Positions 5,700 through 49,035 of a stretch of DNA of 64,000 nucleotides are shown here, one piece after another; position 1 is the stretch's first letter; each line of letters begins with the position of its first letter. Below the pieces are notes generated by a model, which did not search any database, was not told where the DNA came from, and saw only the letters and a list, made by a program, of their open reading frames with translations. Source of the DNA: an uncultured Pseudomonadota bacterium (lineage in GTDB: Bacteria > Babelota > Babeliae > Babelales > CAIQNR01). Location: the NCBI GenBank assembly GCA_964606885.1, contig CAZSHB010000001.1, positions 61,569-125,568 on the forward strand. Reading direction: 5' to 3'. The position numbers and the translations under genes are program-made.

Positions 5700-7118
5700 C
5701 TACGTTAGTTTATTATTTTTTAACACCATTTCTTTTACTTTTTTCTTATCGTGTAACGACTGCTCAATTTGTAGTTCATACGCAGCTTGTACTAACTTAC
5801 CAAGCGCAGGCCCAGGCGCACACACATCCAAGAAATCTGCACCTGTTAACAACGGCTTTTCCGGTCCGTACGCAACACCATACTGTTGTGCACGTGTAAA
5901 AAATTCTTCAACTAATGGTTCTGGGCATACTGCTAATGGCCTGTGCTTTTCTGGATTACGTGCCGACTTATCCGCTTTACAAAGCATATACAAATCGTAC
6001 ATCGTACATTCTGGCGCAAGTTTTGATGCAAGTCGTTTATACGCAGCAGCACTACTGTTATTTTTTACTAATGCTATAGGTGTCATATGGTGGCGCACTA
6101 ATTTAAGCACCGCATCTTGTATATGTTGCGTGGGACATAAACGCTTAAGAAGACTACTTGCCGGTTTTACCCCTGCAACATCATGCCCTAACGAACGAAT
6201 GCGCCCATCAACAAATTGTGTAGTTGCCGGCTTGCCAAGATCATGCGCAAGTGCTGCAAACACTAATGTTAATTTTTTCTCTACAGTCTCATACGTATAC
6301 GAAGCTGCTGCATCAACTGCCTGCATAGTATGCTCAAACACATCCCCTTCCGGGTGGTATTCGAGCCACTGACTAACATGTTGTAAGGCCGCAACTTCAG
6401 GCGCTATCTCTTTAAGACGACCAATCGTGGCAAGCCAACGGATACCAAGCGATGGTTGTTCCGATTTTAAGAATAACTTTTCAAACTCTTTACTAATACG
6501 TTCTTGTGCCACACCTGCTAGATCCATATTTGTACACAAGGCTGATAGTTCTGCATCAGGATGCATGTTAAACCGACCTATAAACTGCATTACTCTATAA
6601 AAGCGCAACGGATCTTGTACAAAAAAATGAGCATCCGGCGTCCGCAACAGATTCTTCTGTAAATCGTGCACGCCATTAAAGGGGTCAATCAGTTCTCCAG
6701 TTGCAAGATCAATACCCATAGCATTTATGGTAAGATCGCGCCGCCTAAACGCATCGGCCATGTTCATATGCGGGTCTAACGTGACGGTTGGTTTTCTACC
6801 GGCAGTATCGGCACGAGGTAGCGACCAATCGGCAGGTATACCATCAATCTTTAAAACGCCGTACACCTTACCCACCAAACGCACATGCCCAAACTTTTTG
6901 AGTACCTTTTCTAGCGCTGCTAGTCCAAGACCATGCACTTCAATATCTATGTCTTCAAGAGGTTTTTGCAACAATGCATCGCGCACTGCACCTCCTACTA
7001 AAAGAACACGTGCATTCTGAACGTGTAAAGCATCAACTATAGGTGCAATGGCGGGATGTTTACTAAAAATAGTTTCACGTGTTTTTTGTACTAACTGAGC
7101 AACTTTTGTAGACTGCAT
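5700..7118 (-). CDS. cca: CCA-adding tRNA nucleotidyltransferase with HD domain
   Basis: PolyA-polymerase/CCA head domain (LLVGGAVRDALL...DIDIEV; RRDLTINA) followed by an HD domain (ALAHDLGK). Confidence 0.85.
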   Translation of the reverse strand: MQSTKVAQLVQKTRETIFSKHPAIAPIVDALHVQNARVLLVGGAVRDALLQKPLEDIDIEVHGLGLAALEKVLKKFGHVRLVGKVYGVLKIDGIPADWSLPRADTAGRKPTVTLDPHMNMADAFRRRDLTINAMGIDLATGELIDPFNGVHDLQKNLLRTPDAHFFVQDPLRFYRVMQFIGRFNMHPDAELSALCTNMDLAGVAQERISKEFEKLFLKSEQPSLGIRWLATIGRLKEIAPEVAALQHVSQWLEYHPEGDVFEHTMQAVDAAASYTYETVEKKLTLVFAALAHDLGKPATTQFVDGRIRSLGHDVAGVKPASSLLKRLCPTQHIQDAVLKLVRHHMTPIALVKNNSSAAAYKRLASKLAPECTMYDLYMLCKADKSARNPEKHRPLAVCPEPLVEEFFTRAQQYGVAYGPEKPLLTGADFLDVCAPGPALGKLVQAAYELQIEQSLHDKKKVKEMVLKNNKLT

Positions 7119-7233
7119 AGAATCATCACTTTTACATTAAAGATACTGTATGAATACCAAACAATTTTTATCTATCGATTTTTTATCAACTCTTTTTAAC
7201 TCTACGTTGCCAGCACTTTTTTTAAAAGATATT
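6955..7233. repeat. Segmental duplication copy A (cca 5' end + divergent promoter + 5' end of LRR gene)
   Basis: Aligns by eye over about 280 bp, roughly four-fifths identical, with 9081-9356. Shared blocks include gcaacaatgcatc, acacgtgcatt, gtgtaaagcatcaactata, gtactaactgagcaacttttgta and atactgtatgaataccaaaca. Confidence 0.85.
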
Positions 7234-8076
7234 CCATTCTTGAGCTATACAACATTAAAATGTGTGCCTCTTATACTTCTCTTTGTGTCTCATTCTTATC
7301 TGTATAGCTCAGATAAAAAACATATAAGCAAACAAGCAAGAAAATCTTTACGTACACTTCAGTTAAGTAAACTTCAAGCAATTCAATCGCAACAAAAAAA
7401 AGGTGAATCAACTCTTGAATGCATCCAGAAAGAACCAGAACATCCAGTCCATCATAAAAATGATACAGCCCAACTCACAGATAAACTGGCTACTGATGAC
7501 ATATTTACACGCAAGAATAAACGGGATTTTTTTGTAGTTCAGAACAAAGATGGAAGCTTTTCTACTATTAGCGCATTAACAGTGCTTATTCTATCGCATA
7601 ACAAATTAACATCATTCCCCAAAGAAAGTTTTTCTCATCTTTCATATTTAAAAGAGCTTGATTTATCAGACAACCAGCTCACTACACTGCCTGATATGTG
7701 TAAAGCAGATTTACCCAATCTAAAAACCCTACATTTATCCAGAAATAATTTAACATCTGAAACAGTAAATCAATTTCCTGTACTTCCACGTTTAAAAAAC
7801 CTTTACTTAGACAATAATCAAATAACAGAATTTCCTAATGTATCAGCTGAACCACTAATGCACATTCGTTATATTGATTTAAGTGATAATCAAATTACCA
7901 AGATAGATTACACTAAGATACTAGCGTATAAAAGACCTCTAGAAACTACGATATTAAATATGGAAAACAATCCTGTACAGGACACGAATAATCCTACTCG
8001 TTTAGGTATTATTTTTAAAGATGAAGATCGTTATCGATATAGAGGTAAAATACCCAATGAATGCACTTTACTTTAA
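7150..8076 (+). CDS. Leucine-rich-repeat protein with C-terminal CaaX box (CTLL)
   Basis: LRR units LxxLxLxxNxL (LKELDLSDNQLTTLPD, LKTLHLSRNNLTS, LKNLYLDNNQITEFPN, IRYIDLSDNQITKI). The last four residues are C-T-L-L then stop (TGC at 8062-8064). Confidence 0.8.
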   Translation: MNTKQFLSIDFLSTLFNSTLPALFLKDIPFLSYTTLKCVPLILLFVSHSYLYSSDKKHISKQARKSLRTLQLSKLQAIQSQQKKGESTLECIQKEPEHPVHHKNDTAQLTDKLATDDIFTRKNKRDFFVVQNKDGSFSTISALTVLILSHNKLTSFPKESFSHLSYLKELDLSDNQLTTLPDMCKADLPNLKTLHLSRNNLTSETVNQFPVLPRLKNLYLDNNQITEFPNVSAEPLMHIRYIDLSDNQITKIDYTKILAYKRPLETTILNMENNPVQDTNNPTRLGIIFKDEDRYRYRGKIPNECTLL

Positions 8077-8083
8077 GGACAGT

Positions 8084-9022
8084 ATGTATAATACATTTAT
8101 TTTTATTTTCATTATAGCGACAATGCAATCTTTTTTTTCACATGCATCAGATACAACTGCAGATCGTTATCATACCATCAAGTTTGCTGATGGTTCACAA
8201 AAAGAATATTCCAACGAATCCATTACCGATCTACCTATAATGCAAGCAGCACAAGACGCTTCTGACACTACAAATCACACACTAAATTTGTCCCATTTAC
8301 GCAATCTTAACAAACACTATTTCACTACTCTCTTGTTAGTATTAGAAGCTAAAAAACGAAGCCCTAATCATGCACAGGGTTACTATCTGCATAATGATGG
8401 TCGACGCGTTAGTGATCAAGAAAGCATTGATGCCCTCTATGCTGCGCAATCCATATATAAAAAAGATGATCCTATTCATCAAGAAATAGGAGGTAAATTT
8501 CACATGTTTTTACGACAAATTCACATATCTAATGCCTTTCTACGCGCCCTTCCACCCACTCTTCCTTTTAAAGATGAAGCAAATAATACAATATACACGC
8601 TTAATCTAGAAGGTAATCTGCTCACAACGCTTCCTGATAATGTTTTTAACCATCTAAAAAACTTGAGCACCCTCAATCTATCACGTAATTCTTTAACATC
8701 CGTAACTGCTGCAACTCTGTCTGGTCTTACTGCTTTAAAAGAACTTAATCTCTCATACAACAACCTCTCTCAAGTGCCTGAAGTTGCTCTAACATCATTA
8801 GAAAAGCTTGATGTACGCGGAAATAAAATAAAAAAAGTACGTTATGCTACATTAGCTCTTAAACAATTAGGGCCACAATTAAAACTCTTAGATTTACGAT
8901 CTAATCCCTTAAGTCCCGCTACTCACCTAGCTATGGATGCTATCCCAAAAGATACGTTAGACGTTTATCTAGAAGATGCTGATGTACCACCTAAAAAAGA
9001 TGGCGACTGTGCATTACTTTAA
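8084..9022 (+). CDS. Leucine-rich-repeat protein with C-terminal CaaX box (CALL)
   Basis: ATG at 8084 has an AAGGA SD 4 nt upstream and gives the signal peptide MYNTFIFIFIIATMQSFFSHA. LRRs: LNLEGNLLTTLPDNVFNHLKNLSTLNLSRNSLTS...LKELNLSYNNLSQVP. Ends C-A-L-L then stop (TGT at 9008-9010). The ORF-track start 8021 overlaps the upstream gene. Confidence 0.8.
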   Translation: MYNTFIFIFIIATMQSFFSHASDTTADRYHTIKFADGSQKEYSNESITDLPIMQAAQDASDTTNHTLNLSHLRNLNKHYFTTLLLVLEAKKRSPNHAQGYYLHNDGRRVSDQESIDALYAAQSIYKKDDPIHQEIGGKFHMFLRQIHISNAFLRALPPTLPFKDEANNTIYTLNLEGNLLTTLPDNVFNHLKNLSTLNLSRNSLTSVTAATLSGLTALKELNLSYNNLSQVPEVALTSLEKLDVRGNKIKKVRYATLALKQLGPQLKLLDLRSNPLSPATHLAMDAIPKDTLDVYLEDADVPPKKDGDCALL

Positions 9023-9064
9023 CAACAGATTATGTTAAGAACATTATGCATCGTATCACTTAGC

Positions 9065-9243
9065 TCACTATCCCTGCTTTCAAGATGCTTTTGCAACAAT
9101 GCATCTTGCACTACACCTCGTACAAAGAAAACACGTGCATTTTGAATGTGTAAAGCATCAACTATAGACTTAATAGCAGGATGTTTGCTAAAAATAATTT
9201 CTTGAGTTCTTTGTACTAACTGAGCAACTTTTGTACACTGCAT
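9065..9243 (-). pseudogene. Truncated duplicate of the cca 5' end (relic)
   Basis: The ORF-track peptide MQCTKVAQLVQRTQEIIFSKHPAIKSIVDALHIQNARVFFVRGVVQDALLQKHLE matches cca residues 1-55 (MQSTKVAQLVQKTRETIFSKHPAIAPIVDALHVQNARVLLVGGAVRDALLQKPLE). The GG motif is degraded and the rest of the gene is missing. Confidence 0.8.
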
Positions 9244-9356
9244 AAGATCATCACTTTTTAAAAAGGATACTGTATGAATACCAAACAGTTTTTAGCCATC
9301 GGTTTTTTACTAACTGCAGTTAACTGTACGTTGTCAGCACATATTTTTGAAGATAT
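9081..9356. repeat. Segmental duplication copy B
   Basis: Direct repeat of 6955-7233. It covers the cca relic, the intergenic promoter region and the first ~27 codons of the 9274 gene. Confidence 0.85.
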
Positions 9357-10080
9357 TTCGCTCTGGTGGAAAACAAAAGAAGAAGAAGTGGTAACACATG
9401 AACACAAATTATCCCCTGGCGCGCATATTTCTATAGAAAACAATAACGGTCCTATTACTATCAGCACTTGGAATAAAAACTCGATCATGTTAGAGGCTAC
9501 TAAATCAGGATCTGAACAATCGGTTAAAAATACCAAGATTGATCTCACCTACACCGCAAAAGGCTTATCTATAAAAACCGTTGGTCTTAAACCGGACAAA
9601 ACCTGTACTATTTCATTTGCAATTATCGTTCCTGTTGATGCTCACCTTGATTCCATTAAAACCGAACAAGGTAACATCACCGTAAAAAACAGTGCAACGC
9701 CACTCTCACTAAGCAGTAACTATGGCGATCTAACCGTGATTGACGCACAAAGCTCAATCAACGCACATACTAAATATGGACAAATCACCATATCAACGAC
9801 ATCTGAACTTAAAGATGATAATAAAGTACTTGCGTTTACCGAACGTGGCGCCATCACCATGCATGTACCAGAAAAAACAAATGCACACCTGTACGCAACT
9901 ACCTTACGTGGCAGTGTATCAACCGAACAACCTGTAACGCTTGATCCGCGCACAACTCCTATTAACACTAAAGCTATTGCGCAAATCAAACGGGACGTCC
10001 AAGGTTCTTTAGGTTCTGGACAAGGACCAACGTTTAAATTACACACCAACAAAGGCAATATTAAACTTGCTGTTAGCTAA
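9274..10080 (+). CDS. Secreted hypothetical protein, possibly DUF4097-like beta-helical (putative adhesin fold)
   Basis: Signal peptide MNTKQFLAIGFLLTAVNCTLSA. Repeated G-x-I-T-[VI] strands (GPITIST, GNITVKN, GDLTVID, GQITIST, GAITMHV, GNIKLAV). Confidence 0.45.
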   Translation: MNTKQFLAIGFLLTAVNCTLSAHIFEDISLWWKTKEEEVVTHEHKLSPGAHISIENNNGPITISTWNKNSIMLEATKSGSEQSVKNTKIDLTYTAKGLSIKTVGLKPDKTCTISFAIIVPVDAHLDSIKTEQGNITVKNSATPLSLSSNYGDLTVIDAQSSINAHTKYGQITISTTSELKDDNKVLAFTERGAITMHVPEKTNAHLYATTLRGSVSTEQPVTLDPRTTPINTKAIAQIKRDVQGSLGSGQGPTFKLHTNKGNIKLAVS

Positions 10081-27627: not shown

Positions 27628-29223
27628 ATGGCAAAATATATCGTAGTCACCGGTGGCGTACTCAGTTCTGTAGGCAAAGGCATCGTAGCAGCATCAGTTG
27701 GTAAGATGTTACAAGAGCGAGGCGTTAACGTCGCAATTCAAAAACTTGATCCTTATATCAACGTTGACCCAGGTACCATGTCCCCCTATCAACATGGTGA
27801 AGTGTTTGTTACCGAAGATGGTGCAGAAACTGATCTTGATCTTGGACATTACGAGAGATTTCTTAACAGAAACTTACGTAAATCATGCAGCGTCACATCA
27901 GGCCAGATGTACGCACAAGTTATAGATAAAGAACGCAAAGGCGATTATCTCGGTGGCACCATTCAAGTTATTCCACACATTACTAATCAAATCAAAAGTG
28001 CCGTACAACACGCAGCAACAGATACCGGTTGTGAAGTACTCATTATTGAAGTTGGTGGCACAGTGGGCGATCTTGAAGGCGGACCTTTTTTAGAAGCATT
28101 ACGCCAACTCCAACACGATCTACCAAAAGAAGATCTTATTTTTATTCATGTTGCATGGCTCCCGTATGTGCAAGCAACACAAGAACTAAAAACAAAACCT
28201 GCGCAACACTCACTTAAAGAACTCCGCTCAATTGGTATTATTCCCAACATTGTTGTGGCACGTGCAGATCAACATATAGATAAAAGCTTGTGCACCAAGA
28301 TAGCGCTGTTTGGTAACATTAAACCTGAACATGTTATTCCACTGCACACAGAAAAAGCCACGTATAAAGTTCCATTAATTTTAGAAGAACAAGGCGTTGG
28401 TAACGCTATTGTACAGCTGCTTAATCTACACCCACGTATTACCTATCCATCATGGAACGTGTGGAAAGAGCTGATTGCTCAGATGGAAAAAACGCCAACT
28501 AAAACAGTCACTATTGGTTTAGTTGGTAAATATGTGTCACTTCATGATGCGTATATTAGTGTAACTGAAGCACTCTATCACGCAGGACGCGCTGTTGATG
28601 TAGGCATTCATATAAAGTGGATTGATGCACAAGATGTAACTGCAGAAACTGCGGGTCAGTTACTTGGTGATTGTGATGGTATTGTAGTTCCAGGTGGCTT
28701 TGGTGATCGTGCTGTTGAAGGCAAAATTGTTGCAGCACACTACGCTCGCACCCATAAAAAACCGTACTTAGGTTTATGCCTTGGTATGCAAGTTATGTGC
28801 ATAGAACTTGCACGCGCAGTTATTGCAAAGGACGCACACACCACGGAAATTAATCCAAAAAGTTCTACCCCTATTGTACATCTGATGGAATCGCAAAAGG
28901 ATGTCACACAAAAAGGTGGCTCAATGCGTCTTGGTGTGTACCCCTGCAAACTACTACCAGGGACTAAAGCTGCTGCTGCGTACAAACAAGACCTAATCCA
29001 AGAACGGCACAGGCATAGATTCGAATTTAATAACATTTATAGAAAACAGTTAGAAGATGCTGGTCTTATACTCAGCGGATTATCACCTGATGGATTATTA
29101 GTAGAAATTGTGGAACTTAAAGACCATCCATTTATGGTGGCAAGTCAGTTCCATCCAGAATTTTTATCCCGTCCTGGTAAACCTCACCCACTCTTTAAGG
29201 CATTTATAGAAAACTGTGTATAA
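27628..29223 (+). CDS. pyrG: CTP synthase
   Basis: N-terminal synthase domain (VTGGVLSSVGKG) and a GATase domain (LGLCLGMQ, HRHRFEFN). Confidence 0.95.
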   Translation: MAKYIVVTGGVLSSVGKGIVAASVGKMLQERGVNVAIQKLDPYINVDPGTMSPYQHGEVFVTEDGAETDLDLGHYERFLNRNLRKSCSVTSGQMYAQVIDKERKGDYLGGTIQVIPHITNQIKSAVQHAATDTGCEVLIIEVGGTVGDLEGGPFLEALRQLQHDLPKEDLIFIHVAWLPYVQATQELKTKPAQHSLKELRSIGIIPNIVVARADQHIDKSLCTKIALFGNIKPEHVIPLHTEKATYKVPLILEEQGVGNAIVQLLNLHPRITYPSWNVWKELIAQMEKTPTKTVTIGLVGKYVSLHDAYISVTEALYHAGRAVDVGIHIKWIDAQDVTAETAGQLLGDCDGIVVPGGFGDRAVEGKIVAAHYARTHKKPYLGLCLGMQVMCIELARAVIAKDAHTTEINPKSSTPIVHLMESQKDVTQKGGSMRLGVYPCKLLPGTKAAAAYKQDLIQERHRHRFEFNNIYRKQLEDAGLILSGLSPDGLLVEIVELKDHPFMVASQFHPEFLSRPGKPHPLFKAFIENCV

Positions 29224-34203: not shown

Positions 34204-35532
34204 ATGATAAGCTTTTTAAGCGGATTTGAAAGCAAGCAAGAAAGACGCAAATTTAGTCTTTTAGCGGTTGTTTTCAGTTTAACTATTGGTGTTTACTGGC
34301 TATTTCGTCCAGTAAAAGACGGTGTGTTTTTAACCATGGTTGGAACTGACTGGCAGCCTCTAGTTAAGATTCTGTCTTTCTTTGTGGTTGTTCCTATTGT
34401 TTTCATCTACAGCAAGCTTGTTGATAGATTCCCTCGTCACAAATTGCTGTACGGTTTGTCTGTATTCTATGCAATCGCAACCGTTATTTTCGCATTTTTA
34501 ATTTTAAACCCTGTTATTGGTATTGCCAATACTGAAGCTTCTCCATGGCGTTTACTAGGTTGGACCTGGTACTTGTTTGTAGAAAGCTTTGGATCAGTTA
34601 TGGTTGCACTTTTCTGGTCTTTTGTTGCTGATACAACAACTCCAGATTCAGCTAAACGTGGTTATTCATTAATCGCGCTTGGTGGTCAACTTGGTGGTCT
34701 TATGGGGCCATTCGCTGGTGGTTACATTGCTGACCATTACGGCACAGGTTCAGCACTTTTATTTGGTGCAGCTGGCCTTATCGCATTAACAGTATCAGTA
34801 TGGTACTACATGCGTTCTATGCCAAAAACTGAAATGCAAGGTTTTGCAGCTCATGGTAAACCATTAGAAAGCAAAGCTGGCGAAACTAAATCTAAGCCTG
34901 GTTTTGGTGAAGGACTACGTCTTTTACTTACTAAGCCATACTTGCTTGGTATTTTCGCAGTTGTTTCATTCTACGAAATTATCGTTACTATCCTTGACTA
35001 TCAATTCAAAGTTCTTGCAGCAACAGAATATACTGGTGATGCATTGACTTCTTACTTGTCACAATTTGCTATGTGGACTAACGGTGTTGCATTAGCTTCA
35101 TTGTTACTTGGTGCAGGCGCAGTTGGTCGTAAGCTTGGCCTAACTCGCACCTTGTTACTCTTGCCTATTTTAATTGCAGTAGCAGTACTTGTTATGAGCT
35201 TTAACCCTGTGTTGAATATTGCATTCATGATCATGGTTATCAGCAAAGGTATTAACTACGCACTTAACCAACCAGCAAAAGAACAATTGTACATTCCAAC
35301 AAGCAAAGACTCGAAGTATAAAGCTAAAGCATGGATCGACATGTTCGGTTCTCGTTCATCAAAAGGCCTTGGTTCTATTGTAAATGGATTCAAAGGTATT
35401 GCTGGCGCAGAAATGTTCATGATCATCAGCGCAGCTGCTTCTCTTGGTATGATTGGTGTTTGGATTTTTGCAGCTCTCTTCTTGGGCCGCACTCATGCAA
35501 AAGCAGTCAAAGAAGACCGTCTTGTTTGCTAA
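34204..35532 (+). CDS. Nucleotide transporter, Tlc/NTT (ATP:ADP antiporter) family
   Basis: Polytopic, ~12 TM. The N-terminal RKF...W.FRPVKD block and the family block NYALNQPAKEQLYIPTSKDSKYKAKAWIDMFGSRSSKGLGS are typical of PF03219-type carriers as I recall them from Rickettsia and Chlamydia. Confidence 0.75.
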   Translation: MISFLSGFESKQERRKFSLLAVVFSLTIGVYWLFRPVKDGVFLTMVGTDWQPLVKILSFFVVVPIVFIYSKLVDRFPRHKLLYGLSVFYAIATVIFAFLILNPVIGIANTEASPWRLLGWTWYLFVESFGSVMVALFWSFVADTTTPDSAKRGYSLIALGGQLGGLMGPFAGGYIADHYGTGSALLFGAAGLIALTVSVWYYMRSMPKTEMQGFAAHGKPLESKAGETKSKPGFGEGLRLLLTKPYLLGIFAVVSFYEIIVTILDYQFKVLAATEYTGDALTSYLSQFAMWTNGVALASLLLGAGAVGRKLGLTRTLLLLPILIAVAVLVMSFNPVLNIAFMIMVISKGINYALNQPAKEQLYIPTSKDSKYKAKAWIDMFGSRSSKGLGSIVNGFKGIAGAEMFMIISAAASLGMIGVWIFAALFLGRTHAKAVKEDRLVC

Positions 35533-35559
35533 GCTTTTAGTTTAAGCATTTTTAGATAT

Positions 35560-35598
35560 AAAAAAATAAGGCAGGAAAAAATCCTGCCTTATTTTTTT
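35560..35598. terminator. Bidirectional rho-independent terminator
   Basis: aaaaaaATAAGGCAGGAaaaaaaTCCTGCCTTATttttttt. Confidence 0.8.
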
Positions 35599-35618
35599 AT
35601 CTAATTTTAAAAAGCATA

Positions 35619-35894
35619 TTAAAGAATTATACATCCTTTTTCATCATTTATCTTCATGCGTACATATGCTTCTTGATCCAAACCCATCACTTCATACATA
35701 TTTCTGTCTACCCACTCTCTTCTATACTCATCCTCTCGGCACTGCCGATCATGACTTGCTTGCAACTGTTCTAAGGCTTTTGTTTGTGCTTCCACTTGAG
35801 CCTTCAAAGCTTCTAATTGCTGAAAATTATCATTTGAGCTTGCACAAACCTGCATTGTCAAAACCAGTGCCGTTATAATAAGCATTTTTTTCAT
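35619..35894 (-). CDS. Small secreted coiled-coil protein with C-terminal CaaX box (CIIL)
   Basis: Signal peptide MKKMLIITALVLTMQVCASS and a helical heptad-like middle (QQLEALKAQVEAQTKALEQLQA). The last four residues are C-I-I-L then stop (Cys codon 35631-35633). Confidence 0.6.
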   Translation of the reverse strand: MKKMLIITALVLTMQVCASSNDNFQQLEALKAQVEAQTKALEQLQASHDRQCREDEYRREWVDRNMYEVMGLDQEAYVRMKINDEKGCIIL

Positions 35895-36184
35895 ATTTTT
35901 CCTTTCAGGAATGTTATCTTACTGTTACGTTTACCGACAGTCGATTATACAACATCAAACAACATTAACAATAATTATATTCATAATAAATCCTATTTGG
36001 ATCAATAATAGAGTGCCCTTTGCCCTGCCTTATTTGTTTTAATTTTCGCTATGGCAATTTATTCCTTTATGCTACACTGCTTTCTATACTAAAAAGTGTA
36101 AAAAATCGCCAAGGAATAACGATGTTTGAGTTGCCACATCATATCTTCTGTCAACATGTCCTGAGAGTAGTAGAGATAAAAAAT

Positions 36185-36229
36185 TAATAAGCTTTTCGTG
36201 CTTAAACGCGGAAAGCTTATTTTGTTGTT
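36185..36229 (+). promoter_or_regulatory. Orphan terminator-like hairpin in the 5' leader of the second NTT gene (possible attenuator)
   Basis: aATAAGCTTTTCGtgcttaaaCGCGGAAAGCTTATtttgttgtt: a ~12-bp stem with one mismatch plus a T-rich tail, 30 nt upstream of the ATG. No upstream same-strand gene exists for it to terminate. Confidence 0.3.
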
Positions 36230-36259
36230 AATAGTGTCGTTATAACAAAAAGGTCCTCT

Positions 36260-48148: not shown

Positions 48149-48598
48149 CTAGCGTGGACAACTGTGTATACATTTTTCATTACGCTTACACGACCTTACA
48201 CACTCATAATACTGATCTTGCTGCTGCATTGGATCTTGCATCTGCTCTTGCACTGTCATTAATGTACCTTTAACGGTTACTAAATCTGGCAATGATATGT
48301 TGTTATTTCTTGCATTTTGAACGAGCGTTGCTGCATACCAATATTCTCGAGCTTCATAGTATCCACTCGGTTTAGATAAACACATACCTTGAACAAGCAC
48401 TTCACCACTGGTTTGCAATCTTGCCGTTACCGTTTTGCAGGTATTAAAAAATGAACCGCCCACGTGCAAAGGCTGTCTATTCTTCATCATGACTAACTGA
48501 TTATTACTATCTAAAACCGCTATAGCCCTGTAGGTTTTTTTAGCTTGAACTTCTACACTCGCCCCTAACACAACAAGAGCTACTAATAACTTTTTCAT
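48149..48598 (-). CDS. Small secreted Cys-containing protein (family A, long form)
   Basis: Signal peptide MKKLLVALVVLGASVEVQA. Shares the core LHVGGSFFNTCKTVTARLQTSGEVLVQGMCL with the next gene and has an extra Cys-rich tail (CVRSCKRNEKCIHSC). Confidence 0.6.
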   Translation of the reverse strand: MKKLLVALVVLGASVEVQAKKTYRAIAVLDSNNQLVMMKNRQPLHVGGSFFNTCKTVTARLQTSGEVLVQGMCLSKPSGYYEAREYWYAATLVQNARNNNISLPDLVTVKGTLMTVQEQMQDPMQQQDQYYECVRSCKRNEKCIHSCPR

Positions 48599-48611
48599 CT
48601 TAACCTCCTTT

Positions 48612-48640
48612 AAAAAAGGGCCTTTTTCGAGGCCCTTTCT
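48612..48640 (-). terminator. Rho-independent terminator
   Basis: aaaaaaGGGCCtttttcgaGGCCCttt. Confidence 0.7.
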
Positions 48641-48681
48641 CTTTATAACTAAATACGAACTACGCGTAGGATAGTATTTAC

Positions 48682-49035
48682 CTACTTTTTATTAGTCATC
48701 TGATTTACAGTTAATTGGGTAAGCACTGAATTACCATAATCTAATGCATGTTGAACTACCGTGCTTGGATAAGTATATGTCGCACCATAAAACATACATT
48801 TTTCATTTTTATTACGCGAACACGTATTTAGACAATTACCCGTAACAATAATAGTATTTCCTGCACGACCTATTTTTGCTGTTACTTTTTTACATGAATC
48901 TAAAAACGGACCTCCTACCTGCAAAGTACCATATTTTGTTGATATCGATTTACCCTTTGCATCTACAACATTAATAGTTTTTGCTTGCACACATGCGCTA
49001 ACTGCTAGCACGATAAACATTAATATTTTTTTCAT
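48682..49035 (-). CDS. Small secreted Cys-containing protein (family A, short form)
   Basis: Signal peptide MKKILMFIVLAVSACVQA. Core LQVGGPFLDSCKKVTAKIGRAGNTIIVTGNCL is paralogous to 48149-48598. Confidence 0.6.
   Translation of the reverse strand: MKKILMFIVLAVSACVQAKTINVVDAKGKSISTKYGTLQVGGPFLDSCKKVTAKIGRAGNTIIVTGNCLNTCSRNKNEKCMFYGATYTYPSTVVQHALDYGNSVLTQLTVNQMTNKK

Follow-up and report, generated by a model that had tools for sequence, protein, structure and literature searches.

A small protein with a Sec-type leader and a C-terminal CaaX box, encoded between two nucleotide-transporter genes of a Dependentiae-like bacterium, is a candidate host-prenylated effector

Can a bacterial protein of only 91 residues carry both a signal for leaving the bacterium and a signal for being lipidated by a eukaryotic host? 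The question is raised by a complete coding sequence (35619..35894, minus strand, ATG to TAA, with the TAA stop codon at 35619..35621) in a 64,000-nucleotide stretch of DNA from an uncultured bacterium (GenBank GCA_964606885.1, contig CAZSHB010000001.1, positions 61,569 to 125,568), which we refer to as the window. The product, MKKMLIITALVLTMQVCASSNDNFQQLEALKAQVEAQTKALEQLQASHDRQCREDEYRREWVDRNMYEVMGLDQEAYVRMKINDEKGCIIL, begins with a Sec-type leader (MKKMLIITALVLTMQVCASS), continues in a helical stretch (FQQLEALKAQVEAQTKALEQLQASH) and ends in GCIIL, the last four residues reading as a CaaX box. We infer that the source organism is an obligate intracellular parasite of protists, of Dependentiae (TM6) type and Babeliales-like; the Dependentiae, a phylum of protist parasites, are widespread and almost without cultured members. 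The hijacking of host prenylation has so far been established for Legionella and Salmonella effectors that are injected by type IV and type III machines. The reading that we favour, and to which we give an even chance, is that the 91-residue protein is a mini-effector exported through Sec and by type II secretion and geranylgeranylated by host geranylgeranyltransferase I (GGTase-I), both secretion and lipidation being predictions from its sequence.

The open reading frame (ORF) had been picked out in a preliminary description of this DNA, which placed it between two TLC/NTT nucleotide-transporter genes, and we find it there on the minus strand. Both flanking products exceed the Pfam gathering threshold of 21 bits for PF03219 TLC (34204..35532, plus strand, 88.4 bits; 36260..37642, plus strand, 41.3 bits), and the small ORF is convergent with the former gene and divergent from the latter. 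When 1.84 billion representative proteins were searched exhaustively with HMMER, one true homologue emerged, P0002 (90 aa, 49% identical, E 2e-15), which is encoded on a 4-kb metagenomic contig, L024. That contig carries rpsB, a TLC gene, the small ORF on the opposite strand and a second TLC gene, and the ORF thus has the same place and orientation as in the window. Between the two genomes, identity is 83-90% for the flanking proteins and only 49% for the small protein. The ratio of nonsynonymous to synonymous substitution rates (dN/dS) over the whole small ORF is 0.44; the flanks, whose dS is similar, have 0.04-0.15. Synonymous substitution between the window and L024 has come close to saturation (dS about 1.1), and the ORF spans 91 codons in one and 90 in the other; its frame is open in both genomes, and the other five frames hold 2-14 stops.

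The signals expected around a gene are similarly present. A Shine-Dalgarno-like AAAGGA (35900..35905, minus strand) lies 5 nt upstream of the ATG, and the sequence GAAAGG(A/G)AAAAT-ATG is conserved between the window and L024. A sigma-70-like promoter (TTGTTA, 16 nt, TATAAT; 35944..35971, minus strand; 10/12 matches in a consensus scan) lies about 50 nt upstream of the ATG, and the aligned position in L024 reads TTGTTG, 16 nt, TATAAT. The number of such sites in the region is not above that in shuffled sequences, and the weight of this one comes from its conservation in L024. A bidirectional intrinsic-terminator hairpin (A-tract, GGCAGG stem, T-tract; 35558..35600), with a 19-pair stem in a scan that expects 0.4 sites in shuffled sequences, is common to the small ORF and the convergent TLC gene; the hairpin between the two in L024 has the same layout and a different sequence. 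On this evidence the ORF is, as read from the sequence, a genuine and lineage-restricted gene, a two-member orphan of a narrow clade, because an open frame in two genomes is accompanied by conserved ribosome-binding site (RBS) and promoter hexamers, by the shared terminator layout and by synteny. The NCBI entry for the identical protein places the start at Met4, giving 88 aa, but Met1 is the likelier start, given the conserved MKKM and the spacing of the RBS.

Word-indexed protein searches with the protein or with the two-member alignment returned only the protein itself and P0002, and a repetitive 568-aa protein reported by HMMER (residues 40-85, E 3.5e-5, 8 stretches) was taken as a spurious match to repeats. 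Scanning metagenomes with back-translated peptides gave 212 pattern matches, none confirmed as a homologue, and the degenerate pattern NDExGCxIL-stop gave 24 metagenomic matches, none of which ends a comparable ORF (23 are interrupted by stops and one lies on a GC-rich contig without resemblance). No similar small ORF occupies the slot in 23 related loci with the same TLC cluster, the ORF is absent from relatives at ≤65% TLC identity, and the window holds no paralogue elsewhere. For the small protein, matches in Pfam and NCBIfam all stayed below threshold and were to coiled coils or leaders, and PDB sequence and Foldseek searches gave none. It had been proposed from position that the protein belongs with genes for host exploitation. 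The TLC-flanked slot does recur in L024, but it is kept only in that one close relative, and the argument from position is weak, as distant relatives share the TLC-TLC-rpsB arrangement without such an ORF.

The protein is built as the preliminary description had read it, from a leader and a heptad-like helical core. The signal peptide (residues 1-18; 35841..35894, minus strand) consists of an n-region MKK, an h-region MLIITALVLTM and a c-region Q-V-C-A. By inspection it has the features of a Sec leader for signal peptidase I, namely K2 and K3, an 11-residue hydrophobic run and V16-C17-A18/S19; cleavage is predicted after A18, with V at -3 and A at -1, and P0002 has VDA/SD at the same place. 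In an AlphaFold2 model (input, the two-sequence alignment; mean predicted local distance difference test score, pLDDT, 76), residues 3-13 form a separate leader helix and residues 20-64 a long alpha-helix (35703..35837, minus strand; block pLDDT 75-93, about 90), followed by short helices at 66-69 and 74-85 and by a non-helical end (86-91) of low pLDDT. A regular heptad core is confined to residues 27-44, with L27, L30, V34, Q37, L41 and L44 at positions a and d (∼3-4 heptads, about six layers); both homologues have hydrophobic residues at these positions, with Q37 unchanged. The mature protein of 73 residues is acidic (15 D+E versus 10 K+R), and the C-terminal half of the small protein holds conserved aromatic residues.

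The three parts of the protein have evolved at very different rates. The leader (residues 1-20) is identical to P0002 at 14 of 20 positions, with a ratio of nonsynonymous to synonymous differences per site (pN/pS) of 0.37, and the tail (78-91; 35622..35663, minus strand) at 11 of 14 (pN/pS 0.25), while the helical core (21-77) is identical at only 19 of 57 (pN/pS 0.81). Within the mature protein, conservation is highest in the tail (tail versus core identity, Fisher p = 0.003), which reads VRMK-I-NDE-K-GCIIL in the window and VRMK-R-NDE-G-GCRIL in P0002. Six of its residues, Arg79, Lys81, Glu85, Gly87, Ile90 and Leu91, have been kept through synonymous codon changes (CGC/AGG, AAG/AAA, GAA/GAG, GGA/GGT, ATT/ATC and CTT/TTG, respectively). 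The core is near-neutral or fast-evolving, a pattern that would fit a host-interaction surface, because the targeting signals at both ends stay constant while the core changes fast.

The CaaX box itself (C88-I89-I90-L91; 35622..35633, minus strand) is read from the sequence as the CaaL type of the GGTase-I class, with the stop codon directly after it. P0002 ends in GCRIL, a box that departs from that of the window protein only at a1, which is a permissive position, and shares the Cys at -4, the a2 Ile and the terminal Leu; since the family has two members, conservation of the Cys rests on this one comparison. The expectation that a homologue would keep the box while the rest diverged is borne out by P0002, which retains Cys, a2 Ile and Leu (CRIL) at 49% overall identity. 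The CaaX Cys is moreover the sole cysteine of P0002, which has Asp and Ser at the positions of C17 and C52, and this disfavours both an intramolecular disulfide and a lipobox; a C52-C88 disulfide was rejected as a family constraint, C52 being Ser in P0002. In the AlphaFold2 model the CaaL end is unstructured and follows a hydrophilic stretch, with Gly at -1. The description of CIIL as a canonical geranylgeranylation box agrees with a humanised-yeast reporter in which this exact tetrapeptide, tested as a G-gamma-derived box, was prenylated even without farnesyltransferase (PMC11152559). To judge by CKVL, a basic residue is tolerated at a1, which bears on CRIL (PMC11152559).

The preliminary description had counted this protein as the third CaaX-Leu protein in the window. 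The other two are leucine-rich repeat (LRR) proteins, ending in CTLL (7150..8076, plus strand) and CALL (8021..9022, plus strand), each with a leader-like hydrophobic segment near the N-terminus. These paralogues are only 25% identical overall, yet their alignment runs through to the last residue, with ends that read (E/D)C(T/A)LL. An orthologue of 7150..8076 in a Logan assembly, P0004, also keeps CTLL, which is uninformative at 92% identity. CaaL ends thus occur on 3 of the 61 window ORFs, compared to 0.03 expected from the amino-acid composition of the window, an enrichment of about 100-fold (P(≥3) = 4e-6, or P(≥2) = 4e-4 if the LRR paralogues are counted once). None was found on 136 ORFs from 163 kb of related-genome loci plus the L024 contig, a count that missed P0002's own CRIL in L024, apparently because a greedy ORF filter dropped that ORF.

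A Sec leader complicates a simple prenylation story, since the protein must first leave the bacterium, a point that the preliminary description had not taken up. We nevertheless consider the leader a lesser objection here than it would be in Legionella, because of what is known of export in Dependentiae. In the cultured member Chromulinavorax, signal peptides are found on 44% of coding sequences and on 78% of ankyrin proteins, Sec is the proposed route of export, outer-membrane vesicles have been observed, and the cells are found in the cytoplasm of the host (PMC6561590). Similarly, a type II system, with two copies of gspD, is encoded in TM6 core genomes (PMC4776705). In the window, a crude pattern rule assigns leader-like N-termini to 21 of the 61 ORFs, one ankyrin protein included, with at least one false positive, the cytoplasmic-looking product of 27628..29223.

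Under the proposed mechanism, the 18-residue leader would direct the protein through Sec and be cut off after Ala18, as sequence rules and conservation suggest. The acidic helical product of 73 residues would then leave by type II secretion or in vesicles and reach the host cytosol, a path suggested by the published biology of Dependentiae. There, Cys88 in the exposed CIIL would receive a C20 lipid from host GGTase-I, the motif being present and its modification predicted, and the usual cleavage of -IIL and carboxymethylation would follow. The lipid would pin the short coiled-coil domain to a host membrane or to that of the replication compartment, where the domain may oligomerise or bind a host partner.

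Several observations weigh against an exported, host-geranylgeranylated protein. The Sec leader brings the protein to the periplasm; that it then crosses the outer membrane and any vacuole membrane is an assumption. Three matches in the box would not be significant on their own between proteins that are 49% identical, and a1 is Arg in P0002. Conservation also runs well upstream of the box (VRMKxNDExG), and the conserved tail may serve another purpose, because a prenyltransferase does not require these residues. The pN/pS of 0.81 in the core would also fit weak constraint in place of adaptive change. Finally, the assignment to Dependentiae rests on TLC genes that are 53-65% identical, and some of the genomes concerned are labelled otherwise.

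The main alternative to a prenylated effector, which we regard as possible though doubtful, is a periplasmic or envelope coiled-coil protein that is retained in the bacterium, with the tail and its Cys playing a bacterial role (an intermolecular disulfide dimer or docking to an envelope partner) and the resemblance to CaaL a coincidence. Such a protein would be expected to have the conserved Sec leader, and conservation that reaches past the four CaaX residues; the single conserved Cys at the end of the coiled coil fits a disulfide-linked dimer, many window ORFs have leaders, most presumably belonging to envelope proteins, and there is weak sub-threshold similarity of the Lpp/OprI type (15.3 bits versus a cut-off of 43). 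Yet retention in the envelope leaves unexplained both the local excess of CaaL ends and the matching ends of the two divergent LRR paralogues, and a disulfide has no need of the a2 Ile and terminal Leu that were kept through synonymous changes. A near-neutral helical core would also be unusual in a structural envelope component, and none of the more distant relatives has the gene. Retention might instead involve a lipid of bacterial origin, if the protein were an Lpp/OprI-like lipoprotein lipidated at Cys17 (VC/ASSN...), with a coiled coil of the alanine-zipper type in the envelope. Its ...QVC-ASSNDNFQQL... does superficially resemble the ...AGC-SSNAKIDQL... of Lpp, and the NCBIfam Ala_zip_lipo profile gives a weak match (E 0.021). 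However, M-Q-V-C is no lipobox, as a small residue is needed at -1, the score of 15.3 bits falls far below the 43-bit cut-off of NCBIfam NF040598, the C-terminal Lys is lacking, and the Asp at the position of Cys17 in P0002 effectively refutes a lipoprotein, which we consider close to untenable.

A different possibility is that the protein is indeed secreted and directed at the host but carries no lipid, its tail being a binding peptide for a host or bacterial partner. We think this improbable. A leader followed by a fast-evolving core fits an effector, conservation of the tail extends over 14 residues and not just 4, and the region before the Cys is not polybasic. On the other side, the box is the exact sequence of a validated GGTase-I substrate (PMC11152559), an exposed C-terminal CaaL in a eukaryotic cytosol would be expected to be modified by default, and the enrichment of CaaL ends would go unexplained. 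That the ORF is no functional gene at all, and arose by chance in a long intergenic spacer, is scarcely plausible. It is an orphan with no family match, its core evolves at a pN/pS of 0.81, and more distant relatives lack it, all as a chance frame might. But the frame has stayed open at 91 and 90 codons despite a dS of about 1.1 with all other frames closed, RBS and promoter hexamers are conserved, a terminator hairpin is present in both genomes, and both ends of the protein are under purifying selection. The ORF was also considered as the antisense of a decayed TLC paralogue, a candidate that we rejected as the spacer contains no such alignment.

The protein was also compared with known systems that resemble it in part. 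A SNARE-like or tethering mimic had been suggested, but the ∼3-4 regular heptads compare poorly with the far longer SNARE motif, and no SNARE or synaptobrevin Pfam profile matches at E≤1 (full length) or E≤10 (mature protein). Legionella LseA, a Qc-SNARE-like protein, is the closest functional analogue of that suggestion; it too combines a coiled coil with a C-terminal CaaX, an architecture that would set the helix on host membranes (PMC7542358). The difference is that LseA is clearly homologous to SNAREs of the syntaxin-6 type, while the small protein has no SNARE profile match.

The G-protein gamma subunit (PF00631) provides a second comparison. At 68-75 aa it is close in size to the mature protein of 73 aa, and it shares an all-helical fold with an N-terminal coiled-coil helix and a CIIL tail; the G-gamma-12 sequence, which ends in CIIL, matches PF00631 at 1.3e-21. 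G-gamma has no signal peptide, however, and no homology was found, as neither mature homologue matches the PF00631 (GGL) profile at E≤10 (76.9 bits for the G-gamma-12 control) and hhalign aligned only the last 8 residues of the tail to G-gamma, with a probability of 1.6%. Because of the mature size, the helical make-up and the CIIL box of G-gamma-12, one can conceive that the protein, after removal of the leader and export by Sec and type II secretion, is a convergent functional mimic of G-gamma, although we give this very little credence. Just as far-fetched is the further step of insertion into host membranes, where it would either pair with a coiled-coil partner, host G-beta or another, or compete for one. 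With Lpp/OprI the protein has in common small size, Sec export, a dominant coiled-coil helix and the weak sub-threshold profile match; it differs in having neither a conserved lipobox Cys nor a C-terminal Lys, and in its conserved aromatic C-terminal half and CaaL end, which are absent from Lpp. To judge by these profile comparisons, the small protein is not a homologue of SNAREs, G-gamma or Lpp.

The closest functional analogues, by analogy of use, are thus the prenylated effectors of Legionella (Pel/CMP proteins, AnkB and LseA) and Salmonella (GtgE), which are anchored through host prenylation of a C-terminal CaaX (PMC13081727, PMC7542358). In these effectors the Cys is lipidated by host prenyltransferases and is needed for localisation to membranes (the vacuole) (PMC13081727). 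Like them, the small protein would come from an intracellular parasite of amoebae or protists and ends in a eukaryotic CaaX box, and here too the box is found on several unrelated proteins of one genome, the LRR pair included. Salmonella SifA is another CaaX effector prenylated by the host. There is no relationship in sequence or fold to any of the Legionella and Salmonella effectors, which are injected by type IV or III machines and have no Sec leader, whereas the small protein starts with a cleavable Sec-type leader, and its export would have to go by type II secretion or in vesicles. They belong to Gammaproteobacteria, as opposed to the Dependentiae-like source of the window, and lipidation here is predicted from the motif. 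The mature protein of 73 residues also appears smaller than known prenylated effectors.

The mimicry of lipid anchors by CaaX boxes is known from Legionella and Salmonella, while a case from Dependentiae is not reported in the literature that we searched, in which no paper joined CaaX with Dependentiae and none of relevance joined prenylation with Babeliales. Relative to known prenylated effectors, the novelty is in the Sec leader, which implies another export route, in the phylum and in the very small size. Effectors of Dependentiae are thought to exit via Sec plus type II, and we know of none with a demonstrated mechanism; nor, to our knowledge, is this route used by any known prenylated effector. 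If the small protein and the LRR pair are indeed geranylgeranylated by the host, they would give the first indication of lipid-anchor mimicry in Dependentiae, and a Sec leader and a CaaX box could coexist in one effector. A leader combined with a C-terminal CaaL would then be a simple rule for finding candidate membrane-targeted effectors in metagenome-assembled genomes (MAGs) of Dependentiae.

The G+C of the window is 40%. Among GTDB species genomes, the nearest relatives of the upstream TLC gene are 53-65% identical, and the MAGs that carry them are labelled Babeliales, candidate division TM6 or Babelota, or are loosely labelled 'uncultured' bins. Tandem TLC genes followed by rpsB are common to the window and these relatives. 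Between two and four TLC genes stand in tandem upstream of rpsB, depending on the genome (L002 and L004-L011 versus the window, L001, L003 and L024); the lineage of the window has two, with the small ORF in the spacer between them, and this spacer holds no detectable remnant of a lost TLC paralogue. The first paralogue (34204..35532) and its orthologues (loci L001-L012) end in ...K(E/A)(D/N/E)(R/K)x(V/I)C, with the Cys as the last residue; this terminal Cys is kept in all related genomes, and the other paralogues end in ...GEVIGS.. or ...GEI(V/I)E.

The spacer contains further elements besides those of the small ORF. It does not align with the spacers of L001 and L003, and in Rfam its only matches are sub-threshold and lie at the terminator hairpin. 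Between the promoter of the small ORF and the downstream TLC gene, a block at ∼36024..36084 is near-identical in L024, and is thus far better conserved than the small ORF; on the minus strand it reads AAATTGCCATAG(C/T)GAAAATTAAAACAAAT, then CAGTGTA(G/C)CATAAA. No Rfam family matches this block, which may be a promoter or operator of the TLC gene, or a leader element. Just upstream of the start of the second TLC gene, ∼94 bp (about 36155..36248) are absent from L024. This segment includes a 15-pair terminator-like hairpin (36186..36221) followed by T-rich sequence, on the same strand as that gene, and could be an attenuator-like leader insertion or a small mobile hairpin element.

Elsewhere in the window, two resemblances suggest a segmental duplication, flanking the LRR pair, of a divergent promoter region together with both gene starts. 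A 74-aa ORF (9019..9243, minus strand) repeats, at 72% identity, the first 61 residues encoded by a gene of the CCA-adding/poly(A)-polymerase family (5700..7118, minus strand). Divergent from it, 9274..10080 (plus strand) encodes a product whose N-terminus, MNTKQFL..., is common with that of the first LRR gene, 7150..8076 (18/34 identical), and which has no LRR domain and no CaaX.

Runs of small ORFs (79-149 aa) with leader-like N-termini are found at 57866..58769 (plus strand) and 48149..49035 (minus strand). Three of them are in tandem and have similar leaders (…LCAAIATPSMHAS / …LCAVAASTSVHAG / …AALCATDAHAT, with KK after each), and two more are at 48-49 kb. By their sequences, the ORFs at 48-49 kb and 57866..58769 are probably families of small secreted proteins; they are unrelated to the 91-aa ORF. 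Downstream of rpsB is a tRNA-Ser (GGA) gene (38811..38902, plus strand), and a 62-aa ORF listed at 38784..38972 (minus strand) is an antisense artefact of this tRNA. Two adjacent genes, 38974..39579 and 39629..40441 (both minus strand), encode ankyrin-repeat proteins, neither with a CaaX end; the product of the former has a clear leader-like N-terminus (MKLLYGFLVMVSVVEGA...), which matches the leader-plus-ankyrin pattern of Chromulinavorax (PMC6561590).

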